Sequence record: NC_048002.1
Source of the DNA: Escherichia phage SRT7
Reading direction: 5' to 3' (one strand)
DNA length: 39,883 bases
Numbering within the stretch: position 1 is the first letter of the stretch; each line of letters begins with the position of its first letter. Both the position numbers and the translations under genes were made by a program. Shown piece by piece: positions 9,405 to 17,263 of this stretch. The notes under the pieces are model-generated. The model saw only the letters and a program-made list of their open reading frames with translations, was not told where the DNA came from and did no database searches.

Positions 9405-11822
9405 TTAGTCAATTAGACGGTTAATCTTCGCTTTGGTGTCCTTAGGTGCCTTGGCGGTTTTCCGCTTAGGCTTTGGTGCGATAGGCTCACCGGACTGGAG
9501 GTCCTTACGAATCTCACCACCGTAGATGCTGTTAGGCACCTGAGCTTTCTTAGCGCGTACACGTTTAGAGCCAGCTTCACGAGCAGACTTAGCCGCCGTG
9601 ATAGGTGCTCGCTTATTGGCGTCCTTCAGGGCCTGTTCAAGTTTAGCCTTGTCCTTCGCCTGTTGCTCAGCAGCACGTTTAGCGTTCGCATCGTCTTCGG
9701 CCTTCTGTGCCTCAATCATATCAGCGCGAGAGATAATCTTAGGCATCTGACCAGCAGCACCAGTGATAAGCACGATATCTTGGTCAGCGTTGTAGTTCAC
9801 ATTAACGTAGGCGCTTGAGATTTTACCCTCGGTAGCCACTTGGTTAATGAACCCTTCCATGTGACGCTTGCCGTTGGTTGCATCAAACCCGTTGCCATTC
9901 TCAAGGAATGACGTAGGGATAGCACCCTGTAGGCGACCAGCAGTGTTCCCAGAGCCACCGGCGCTAAACGTGGTAGTGAACCCCTCAGCCATCCTATCGG
10001 CGGCTTTAAGGGCTTTCCGTGTGTCTCCGTGGTCGTGCATCTCAGCGAGGTACACTTGGTAAGCTGCACCAGCCTCATCGTGGCTCATGTAGTTCAGGTG
10101 CGGATACTGACCGGAGTTCGTCAGGAAATTCTCATAGGAGGCAGCACCTTTATCAGGCTTCTTACTCAGAGAGTTTCGCTCACGTTCGCCTTTAACGAAC
10201 TGCTCGTTAGTCAGGCCGTACTTCTTCATGGTGTACATCTGGGCAATCAGCTCGCCCTGCTCAGGGAATAACTTAACGAACCCCGCAGGGTCAGCCTCGT
10301 AGTACGCCTTGAGTTGGTCCAGCTCGGTCCCTTTAAGTTCAGCACCACGAAGGATAGCACCAGACAAATCGTTGGTTGCAGCTTCAACGCTTGGAGCCAT
10401 AACCTTCTGAGGCCACCCGGTCTTCCCGGAGACACTCGCCAGCTTCATCCACTGTTGAGCCTTTTGCTCAGGGGACAGGTTCGGGTCATTCATGATATCA
10501 TTACGATACTTGTTGAATGCGTTCGTGAAGTCTTCCTCTTTGTACTCACCAGTGTTGTCGTCGGTAGGCATCGTTGAGGTACTCAAAGGAACCGCAAAGT
10601 CACCATTCATCGCTCGCGTAATGTTTCCGTACACGTTTGTCTCACGGTTGAACTTCTGGTTGGCCTTATCATTCTCAGTTGTCTTCTTAGCCGTCTCACG
10701 CGCAAGTCGGTCCTTAAGGGACTGCTCAACACGGTCGATACGGTCTAGGGCTGCTGTTTGTGCGCTACCCGGCTGCATCTTGTTGTAGAAGTCCCGCTGC
10801 TTACGCAACTCCTCCAGACCCAGATTGATGTCGGTAGAGCGCTCAATACCGCCCATAGTTGACTCAAAGATACTCGCACGTTCACGGTCCTGTGTCATTA
10901 AGGATTGGTTAGCGTTAGCGAGATATGAATCCCACGACTCCTTACCTACGTAGTCCTTAATCTTCACACGGCTACCGTATAGTTCAACTTCCTGTTCGCC
11001 AAGAGCTACCAGAGCGGCACCACCTTGCGCATGATTGGAAGTGTTCTTTACGGCATCTAGTAATACAGACTCGCGCTGCTTATCATTCAATAGGGCACCC
11101 TGACGGGTCTGCTCCAGATAGCCAGTCACCGAGGTCGCATATTGTTCACCGTTCGTCGCATTAAGACCGTGGAGTGAACCACTTAAAGTCTGCTTAGCGT
11201 TGACGATTGCAGCATTCTCGTTGAACTGAGCCTTATGTGAATCCCACACGTCATTCGTTGAGATTTCACGTTGCTGAATGTTGGACGCTAAGCCGAACTG
11301 GAAGTGCTCGTCGTTGGTGTCGATACCGTACAGCTTGGCATCCTGCTCAGCGAAGAGCTTGCGCAACTCGGCTTTGTCCTTGTTCATCTGGGCTTCATCT
11401 TCCTGACTGAACGACCCATACTTACCGTCTTTGATTCTCTGCTGAATCTCAGCGTCTGCCCGGAACGAAGCGTTAGACCCCATGTTCTCACGCATGAACT
11501 GCATGGCGAACTTGTTGTCTTGGTAACGCAAGGTCCCATCGTTGAACGCCTTACGATATTCATCAGGATTCTCACGAGCGAACTTGGTCAGCCATTCGGC
11601 CTGTTGCTTGCCAGCTTTCTCCTGTTCGTCCTCGTAGCGCCCAAAGGCAGCACCAGCCGACTTCCCGAAGTTCTCAAGGGAATCCAGAAGACCACTCTTG
11701 ACGTTGTTCGGTGTGCCAACCTGTGCAGCCTGATAGTTAGCCCCAGCGAGGGAGCCACCACGCAGACGCGAGGCAGCAGCTTGAGGATTACTCTGGAGAG
11801 CTGTTTGAATACGACTAGCCAT
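9405..11822 (-). CDS. gp15: Internal virion protein C (T7 gp15-like)
   Basis: 805 aa; position between gp14 and gp16; size and composition. Confidence 0.85.
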   Translation of the reverse strand: MASRIQTALQSNPQAAASRLRGGSLAGANYQAAQVGTPNNVKSGLLDSLENFGKSAGAAFGRYEDEQEKAGKQQAEWLTKFARENPDEYRKAFNDGTLRYQDNKFAMQFMRENMGSNASFRADAEIQQRIKDGKYGSFSQEDEAQMNKDKAELRKLFAEQDAKLYGIDTNDEHFQFGLASNIQQREISTNDVWDSHKAQFNENAAIVNAKQTLSGSLHGLNATNGEQYATSVTGYLEQTRQGALLNDKQRESVLLDAVKNTSNHAQGGAALVALGEQEVELYGSRVKIKDYVGKESWDSYLANANQSLMTQDRERASIFESTMGGIERSTDINLGLEELRKQRDFYNKMQPGSAQTAALDRIDRVEQSLKDRLARETAKKTTENDKANQKFNRETNVYGNITRAMNGDFAVPLSTSTMPTDDNTGEYKEEDFTNAFNKYRNDIMNDPNLSPEQKAQQWMKLASVSGKTGWPQKVMAPSVEAATNDLSGAILRGAELKGTELDQLKAYYEADPAGFVKLFPEQGELIAQMYTMKKYGLTNEQFVKGERERNSLSKKPDKGAASYENFLTNSGQYPHLNYMSHDEAGAAYQVYLAEMHDHGDTRKALKAADRMAEGFTTTFSAGGSGNTAGRLQGAIPTSFLENGNGFDATNGKRHMEGFINQVATEGKISSAYVNVNYNADQDIVLITGAAGQMPKIISRADMIEAQKAEDDANAKRAAEQQAKDKAKLEQALKDANKRAPITAAKSAREAGSKRVRAKKAQVPNSIYGGEIRKDLQSGEPIAPKPKRKTAKAPKDTKAKINRLID

Positions 11823-15895: not shown

Positions 15896-15938
15896 CAAAA
15901 AACCCCTCAAGCATCCCGAAGGACACCCAAGGGGTTTC
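15896..15938 (-). terminator. T-phi-like terminator for phage RNAP, downstream of capsid gene
   Basis: Minus RNA AACCCCUUGGGUGUCCUUCGGGAUGCUUGAGGGGUUUUUUG: GU-rich hairpin plus U6; same position as T7 T-phi. Confidence 0.85.
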
Positions 15939-15940
15939 TG

Positions 15941-17136
15941 TTAGTTAGTCGTTTCGCCAGCCTCCAGAGCGGCCTTAGCAGCCCTGTTTGCAGCACGAGT
16001 GCGAGCGGCTTTCTGTTGTGGCGTAAGCTCCTCAACGACAACCTCCGGTGCATCAGCCATTAGGGCACTGAATTGGACCGGAGGAGGACTTGGAGTTACA
16101 CCAGTTTGAAAACCAGTGCACCAGCAGCTTCTGGGCGCAGACCGCCGTGACCCATCGCGTACTTAGCGATAATCTGGTCAGCCTGATACTCGGCACGACG
16201 AGCACGTTCCAGAGCCAAATCACGCAGCTTCACAGTACCGACCGCAGAACGGTGATGGAACAGGCCAGCCACGTTATCCTCAGCAACCTTAACGGTAGAG
16301 CTGGAGGTAGCCGGGAATGCGTGTTTCTGGTTGGTCGGAGCATCGTCCTTATCGTCACCTGCACCACCTGCGGTGAAGTGCGGAACCTCGACAACCTCGA
16401 AGCCCATTACGTTACGGATAGAACCAGTTTCCGGGTCAATCAGCGCAGCGTAGTTAGCAGCGTTAGGCATCAGGGCCGCCAGAATCGCAGAGTAGTACTC
16501 CGGCTTGGTGTAGAACACACGGTCACCAGCAGGTACGTAGTTGGAGGTCAGCTTAGCGCGAGCCTGAGTCAGGCCAGCAATCAGGGCTTTACCCAGAGCC
16601 ACGGAGTCAGCTTCCAGAGCGTCTTTCAGGCCACCTTCCAGAGTCAGTACGGACGGCTTACCCAGACCCGCGATGTTCTCATCAGAGGCCGCTGGCAGGT
16701 TACACAGAGCCGCAGCTTCAGCCAGAACGGAGCCATCAGCAGCCATCGCCAGAGATTCACCGAGCTGTGCGGTGTACTCAGCGGAAACGTCATAGTGGTT
16801 CATTGCGTCTTCGATGTCGTAAATCAGAACGTCAGCAGTCAGGAGACCATCAATGTTGATGACCTTCTCGGTGTGCTTGATGTCTTTACGTTTATCGTCG
16901 AGGTTCTCACCCGGTTGCAGATAGGCTGCACGAGTACGACCCAGCACAGGGAACTGCGCGGATTTACCGGAAGCAATGGAGCGAACCATATGTCGGTTAG
17001 CGGTCACGGATGCGCGAGTAAACGCGGTCAGTACTTCACCTGCGAATACCTTCAGGAACAGAGCCAGTTTGTCTGCTGCGGATTGACCTTTACCTTGGTT
17101 AGTACCAATCTGCTGTCCACCAGTTGCGTTTGCCAT
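15941..17136 (-). CDS. gp10B: Minor capsid protein 10B, made by -1 frameshift near the end of 10A
   Basis: Slippery G GTT TTC at 16109-16115; -1 frame open 55 codons to TAA at 15941; predicted 398 aa as in T7. Confidence 0.7.
16096..17136 (-). CDS. gp10A: Major capsid protein 10A
   Basis: 346 aa; MANATGGQQIGTNQGKG... near-identical in many blocks to T7 gp10A; strong RBS. Confidence 0.97.
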   Translation of the reverse strand: MANATGGQQIGTNQGKGQSAADKLALFLKVFAGEVLTAFTRASVTANRHMVRSIASGKSAQFPVLGRTRAAYLQPGENLDDKRKDIKHTEKVINIDGLLTADVLIYDIEDAMNHYDVSAEYTAQLGESLAMAADGSVLAEAAALCNLPAASDENIAGLGKPSVLTLEGGLKDALEADSVALGKALIAGLTQARAKLTSNYVPAGDRVFYTKPEYYSAILAALMPNAANYAALIDPETGSIRNVMGFEVVEVPHFTAGGAGDDKDDAPTNQKHAFPATSSSTVKVAEDNVAGLFHHRSAVGTVKLRDLALERARRAEYQADQIIAKYAMGHGGLRPEAAGALVFKLV

Positions 17137-17241
17137 GTTGAATCTCCTTCTATAAGTTTATCGAAAGTGTTTGTTGGGAGCTTACTCGCAGTGTTCCATA
17201 GTCGGCTACCTAATGGTCGGCTCTATGGGTCTTACTTTCTG

Positions 17242-17263
17242 TCTCCCTATAGTGTGGGTTAAT
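17242..17263 (-). promoter_or_regulatory. Phage RNAP promoter (phi10-like)
   Basis: Consensus 22-mer; ~110-nt leader ending AGAAGGAGATTCAACATG. Confidence 0.9.

Follow-up and report, generated by a model that had tools for sequence, protein, structure and literature searches.

The closest described system is gene 10 of phage T7, in which a -1 frameshift links 10A to the longer product 10B (Dunn and Studier 1983; Condron, Atkins and Gesteland 1991; cited in PMC5009743 and PMC4283147). The T7 site is a variant of the X_XXY_YYZ pattern in which X_XX is G_GU, and frameshifting also involves a CCCC sequence that lies within the Tphi terminator, over 200 nt 3' of the site, through an effect that is unexplained (PMC5009743). 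Here, we present evidence that a T7-type programmed -1 ribosomal frameshift very probably operates at the 3' end of the major capsid gene of a related phage. The first-pass annotation of this DNA had proposed a conserved frameshift of this kind, a reading that is supported by the identity of the site with that of T7, by a comparison of 86 loci and by the constraint that these loci reveal; the 10B product is a predicted one. The mechanism of the shift is already known. Judged by its defining features at the sequence level, all of which are present, the site is the same cassette in another Studiervirinae lineage. We found no publication on the frameshift in the Foetvirus lineage.

The window (the whole stretch of DNA analysed, 39,883 nucleotides) amounts essentially to a whole T7-like phage genome in reverse orientation. 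It contains 14 T7-type promoter cores, CACTATAGGGAGA, with at most two mismatches, where 0.85 would be expected by chance. All lie on the minus strand, and we read the window as the reverse complement of a T7-like genome. Exact cores occur at 566, 5400, 12808, 17242, 18272, 20804, 31158, and 32883, and the other six are near matches. The minus strand is the coding strand for gene 10 as well as for the phage promoters, and all coordinates given below refer to it unless otherwise indicated. The exact core at 17254..17242 lies 5' of gene 10 and is the equivalent of phi10, and a strong Shine-Dalgarno sequence, GAAGGAGA, is present at 17150..17143. Gene 10A itself, identified from the open reading frame (ORF) list and the sequence, occupies 17136..16096 in the 0 frame, ends with TAA at 16098..16096, and encodes a major capsid protein of 346 amino acids (aa) and 36.4 kDa. 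This protein matches the Pfam family Gp10A-like (PF21703, E 2e-104, with residues 61-342 covered) and the structure of T7 10A in the PDB (2xvr, E 1.8e-164). Among database records, Escherichia phage P1723 (Studiervirinae, Foetvirus SRT7) comes closest, with 99.4% identity in the capsid region.

The final codons of 10A are GCA CTG GTT TTC AAA CTG GTG TAA. They include the slippery heptamer G GTT TTC, which lies in phase at 16114..16108 and spans Val342 (GTT) and Phe343 (TTC). GTT is the fifth codon before the TAA, exactly as the first-pass annotation had it, and three codons separate TTC from the stop. When C16108 is read twice, the -1 frame remains open for 55 sense codons and closes with TAA at 15943..15941, so that the 10B-specific extension covers 15941..16108; translation from the re-read base thus bears out the 55 open codons claimed earlier. 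The further claim that this frame ends directly before the Tphi hairpin is also correct, a 19-bp hairpin beginning one base after the TAA. The interval first assigned to the feature, 15941-16115, captures it, although its upper end is one base too far and the minus strand was left unstated. After Phe343, the -1 frame reads QTGVTPSPPPVQFSALMADAPEVVVEELTPQQKAARTRAANRAAKAALEAGETTN. The predicted 10B therefore comprises 343 + 55 = 398 aa (41.7 kDa) and is 52 residues longer than 10A. Its predicted junction is ...EAAGALVF-QTGVTPSPPPVQF..., and its tail includes AANRAAKAALEAGETTN. A length of 398 aa, equal to that of T7 gp10B, had been predicted before, and the annotated T7 10B join of 1196 nt does encode 398 aa.

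Under the proposed mechanism, most ribosomes would read GTT TTC AAA CTG GTG TAA and release the 346-aa 10A, while a minority would slip back by one base with tRNA-Val and tRNA-Phe on G GUU UUC. The Phe-tRNA would re-pair fully, from UUC to UUU, and the Val-tRNA only partly, from GUU to GGU. Shifted ribosomes would then decode CAA and 54 more codons, producing the 398-aa 10B with its 55-residue tail, which would join 10A in the capsid as a minor component. The gene 10 shift of T7 proceeds at a rate of about 10%; for the window, we infer both slippage at the heptamer and its rate. The canonical X XXY YYZ pattern has three identical bases at XXX and AAA or UUU at YYY. The heptamer departs from it, with G GU as X XX, and only its A-site half (U UUC) is able to re-pair fully.

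GGTTTTC occurs only once on the coding strand of the 39.9-kb window, namely as this in-phase copy. Stops in the -1 frame of genes have a density of 0.094 per codon, at which 59 open codons have a probability of about 3e-3. Stop density was chosen as the null, as nested spurious ORFs and the genes that follow distort the open lengths after ORFs of at least 80 aa. The comparative evidence is far stronger than these chance figures from the window alone. One other candidate recoding site, the canonical heptamer GGGTTTG at 9890, is in phase and followed by a long -1 frame. It lies in a 93-aa ORF (9797..10078, minus strand) that is nested inside an 805-aa gene (9405..11822), and we therefore regard the ORF as spurious and reject the site.

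We compared 86 loci, comprising the window, T7, T3, PPWS4, RN5i1, P1723, and 80 loci from IMG/VR. In 80 of them (all those that are not T3-type, the window included), NGTTTTC is found at the same codons, one of the 80 having GGTTTTA. The slip site of the six T3-type loci is C CCA AAG, which follows a few codons later. Counted from the slip site, open -1 frames measure 43 to 96 codons in 85 of the 86 loci and 19 codons in the exception; the +1 frame, which served as a control, is open for no more than 22 codons in all 86. The synonymous positions of the heptamer are also frozen. Among 72 unique related sequences, the Val codon is GTT in every one and the Phe codon is TTC in 71. By contrast, the third positions of two further invariant Val codons, located in the 45 codons before the heptamer, drift, with entropies of 1.37 and 1.41. 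This difference indicates a constraint on the slippery sequence at the nucleotide level.

A few loci carry variant heptamers. L081 has GGTTTTA, which replaces Phe with Leu in 10A; AGTTTTC is present in four loci (L002, L027, L067, and L085) and CGTTTTC in two (L038 and L046). All seven retain a long -1 tail. This suggests that heptamer position 1, and with it re-pairing in the P site, may matter little, and the tolerance of A or C there points to slippage in the A site as the essential step. Two other loci depart from the rest in the tail. L012 has a stop after 19 tail codons, where near-identical relatives have GAG in place of its TAG, and L080 lacks a portion of the conserved block (...AANKPAAAAEQ). 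Both look like natural truncations of 10B, consistent with a dispensable tail, and the early stop in L012 in particular means that 10B may be dispensable.

Three unrelated tail modules are found behind one capsid C-terminus, each reached via a -1 shift. The T7-type module contains a basic block and follows NGTTTTC; the T3-type module is a Big_2 Ig-like domain that follows C CCA AAG (L005-L010); and the Klebsiella-phage-type module (L019, L029, and about 25 others) is 96 aa long. The slip site of gene 10 is fixed and the tail module behind it exchangeable. Within the T3-type group, L007 has a 0-frame TGA directly after C CCA AAG, so that its 10A ends ...LPK*, while the other T3-type loci continue for two or three more codons. 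The stop adjoining the slip site in L007 might itself promote shifting.

The tail of the window consists of a variable, Pro/Ala-rich first half followed by a conserved basic block, LTPxQKAARTRAANxAAK. This block, EELTPQQKAARTRAANRAAK, occupies tail residues 26-45 (15974..16033) and is 75% identical to the T7 10B tail. The first-pass annotation had noted a resemblance of the tail to the T7 10B extension, which holds for these 20 residues (15 of 20 identical, E 4e-8) and fails for the first 25, which are unrelated. The pattern LTPxQKAAxTRAxNKAxK was found in 42 of the loci examined. Among 28 unique sequences, the 20 codons of the block vary at 11 first, 8 second, and 20 third positions, and entropy is highest at the third position (1.24, versus 0.38 at position 1 and 0.38 at position 2). 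When the window is compared with the other sequences, pN/pS of the block is 0.24 in the 10B frame and 2.18 and 1.56 in the other two frames. A low ratio in one frame only, together with variation at all 20 third positions, is the signature of a protein-coding sequence and not of an RNA element. The codon pattern thus indicates that the tail is a translated and selected peptide.

Database comparisons of the tail gave few matches. It matches PHROG 12582, annotated as "head protein", with an E value of 5.5e-11. A match to the Pfam family TraC-like was weak (E 0.017), below the family cut-off, and was rejected. No solved structure in the PDB comparison extends over any T7-type tail. A tblastn search of phage genomes with the junction and tail returned P1723 only; the Ala/Pro-rich tail was presumably masked as low complexity.

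Could the tail instead be a separate small gene, translated from its own start codon? An in-frame ATG is present at tail codon 17 (16058..16060), as seen in the ORF list and in the P1723 record, and it opens a 39-aa ORF (16060..15941; MADAPEVVV...ETTN). The P1723 record annotates this part of the tail as a 39-aa "putative minor capsid protein", several other T7-like records do likewise, PHROG 12582 and 20538 comprise short "head proteins" of this kind, and the gene table of the AP5 paper lists 10B as a separate ORF of 4.3 kDa. We nevertheless consider independent translation very unlikely. The 18 nt before the ATG (GTCCAATTCAGTGCCCTA) contain no Shine-Dalgarno-like motif, and the ATG itself is located inside the predicted hairpin described below. 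No ATG precedes the LTP motif in 16 of 33 unique T7-type tails, and in the remainder its position differs. What is conserved instead, in every locus, is unbroken continuity of the frame back to the heptamer, whose frozen synonymous sites a stand-alone ORF would not require.

It is about equally improbable that the open -1 frame is a relic that is no longer expressed, or a by-product of RNA constraints such as the terminator and the structure of the mRNA 3' end, with the heptamer being kept for the Val-Phe of the capsid protein. T7 10B is commonly considered dispensable, folding predicts extensive structure in the region, and the shortened tail of L012 and the deletion within the block of L080 would fit such a history. 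Against this stand the purifying signal confined to the 10B frame and the variability of every third position in the block, a codon-position pattern that speaks against a relic. The frame is also open in all but one of the 86 loci, across three unrelated types of tail, and GTT is retained in all 72 unique sequences while other Val codons drift.

Least probable of all is the production of 10B by another route, either through a slip elsewhere in the overlap or through transcriptional slippage at the T run by the phage RNA polymerase, for which four consecutive T are few. A shift could join both frames within a zone of 67 nt (16162..16096), in which GAT GGG T at 16152 and GCG CCC A at 16134 are in phase and formally re-pair in -1, but these sites are of the G/C type and lack P-site re-pairing, GGTTTTC is the only A/T-rich slip-capable site in the zone and the only one frozen at synonymous positions, and the same site is documented for T7 (PMC5009743).

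A programmed -1 shift at the heptamer remains by far the best explanation, and with it comes the matter of how such a site might be stimulated. To judge from the poor re-pairing in the P site and the A or C tolerated at position 1, a canonical X XXY YYZ heptamer is stronger than this one, which depends on stimulators. A candidate is a predicted two-helix hairpin (16103..16020) that starts 5 nt 3' of the heptamer; its 5' arm extends across the 10A stop codon and its 3' arm across the E-L-T-P codons of the tail. Its minimum free energy is -35.2 kcal/mol (z -4.0), and none of 200 shuffled sequences was equally stable. In a second test (z -4.3), its stability was above that of any window of the same length within gene 10. 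On the strength of these folding predictions, the hairpin may stimulate the gene 10 shift.

Similar structure is predicted in many relatives. For 19 lineage representatives that are less than 75% identical in the 90 nt after the heptamer, these 90 nt have a mean z of -2.0, with 12 of the 19 below -1.64, and pairing usually sets in 3-7 nt downstream of the heptamer. Covariation was assessed in an alignment, A1, of the 66 nt after the heptamer in eight sequences (L003, L011, L014, L018, L020, L021, L053, and L083) from a clade that includes Berlinvirus RN5i1. The hairpin of this clade begins 6 nt after GGTTTTC and has its 5' arm over the 10A stop, and 10 of its 19 pairs have changed on both sides. 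Pairing is retained in 99.3% of cells, compared with 31-51% in slid controls, and none of 500 shuffles reaches that value; eight sequences are a small sample, and one of them supplied the structure. Covariation is weak for the Klebsiella-phage-type hairpin, whose sequences vary too little.

For the lineage of the window, comparisons of the hairpin reached no further than P1723, which differs from it at one loop base, a synonymous change in the tail frame. A distant blastn search found the first 100 nt in common with P1723 only, and a degenerate pattern had no match in viral contigs. The single metagenome match, L086, arose by chance and is unrelated to the lineage. No Rfam family matches the region, and neither Rfam nor the publications that we searched mention a two-helix element of the A1 type.

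We tentatively propose that every T7-like phage has a lineage-specific two-helix hairpin located 4-7 nt after the heptamer, that its 5' arm runs across the 10A stop codon, that it is kept by compensatory change despite replacement of the tail, and that it is the local stimulator of the gene 10 shift. This generalization is possible, although the odds are somewhat against it. The hairpin of the window is the most stable example that we found (z -4.3). If the proposal is true, a lineage-specific hairpin would supply a local stimulator for a shift whose cis requirements in T7 have been described as an unexplained long-range effect. The recurrent hairpin is thus a mildly novel and testable lead on what stimulates a non-canonical heptamer, supported by covariation in one clade.

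A second element that may contribute to the shift is the terminator 3' of the tail. This Tphi-like intrinsic terminator (15896..15939, with the hairpin at 15939..15898) has a 19-bp stem, a UUCG loop, and a T run, and was recognized by folding, a terminator scan, and comparison with T7. It contains CCCC at 15934..15931, 174-177 nt after the heptamer, as does the Tphi of T7.

The main consequence of these findings concerns annotation: the correct model is a joined 398-aa 10B, and not a 39-aa gene. In the P1723 record (L001), the tail is annotated as an independent 39-aa gene at 2701-2820, corresponding to 16060..15941 of the window, and not as a frameshift join. The profiles of PHROG 12582 and 20538 have 52 and 38 positions, respectively, and these two "head protein" families were probably built from annotations that treat the tail as a gene. 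Correct 10B models would be useful for virion proteomics and for capsid-display engineering on the 10B C-terminus. We therefore regard the finding as a useful re-annotation rather than a discovery.

Compared with known systems, the locus is most similar to T7 gene 10. The capsid proteins are homologous (346 aa for 10A in the window and 345 aa in T7), and G GTT TTC lies at the same codons with AAA as the next codon in both (T7 tgG GTT TTC AAA). The -1 tail has 55 residues in the window and 56 in T7, with a 398-aa 10B in each case, and the tails have an LTPxQxAARTRAANxAxK block in common. In both phages, the 10B stop adjoins the Tphi terminator, which has the same CCCC...GGGGTTTTTTG arms. The two differ in the first 25 residues of the tail and in the RNA encoding them, which are unrelated, so that the predicted hairpin of the window differs in sequence from that of T7. 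The hairpin is also predicted to be more stable in the window, at -37.5 kcal/mol versus -30.2 kcal/mol over 90 nt. Furthermore, the 10B join is annotated in T7, and that of the window is predicted from the sequence.

The Klebsiella-phage-type loci (27 unique IMG/VR sequences, e.g., L029) resemble the window in that NGTTTTC occupies the same codons and is closely followed by a stable hairpin. They differ in their 96-aa tail, for which Pfam gave no match and which shows no similarity to that of the window. In T3, as is proposed for the window, ribosomes shift to the -1 frame near the end of the homologous capsid gene and make a minor capsid protein with a C-terminal extension. T3 differs in its slip site, C CCA AAG, a few codons on, and in its 91-aa tail, a Big_2 Ig-like domain (Pfam E 4.5e-10); the window has neither. 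A more distant parallel is Escherichia coli dnaX, where -1 frameshifting occurs by tandem slippage on A AAA AAG, with a Shine-Dalgarno sequence upstream and a hairpin within a few nucleotides 3' of the site. In the window, we see no Shine-Dalgarno-like stimulator 5' of the heptamer. The two share bacterial -1 tandem slippage and a 3' hairpin, which in the window is predicted. They differ in that the heptamer of the window is non-canonical, with G GU in place of XXX, and in the outcome of the shift, which truncates the product of dnaX and would extend that of gene 10.
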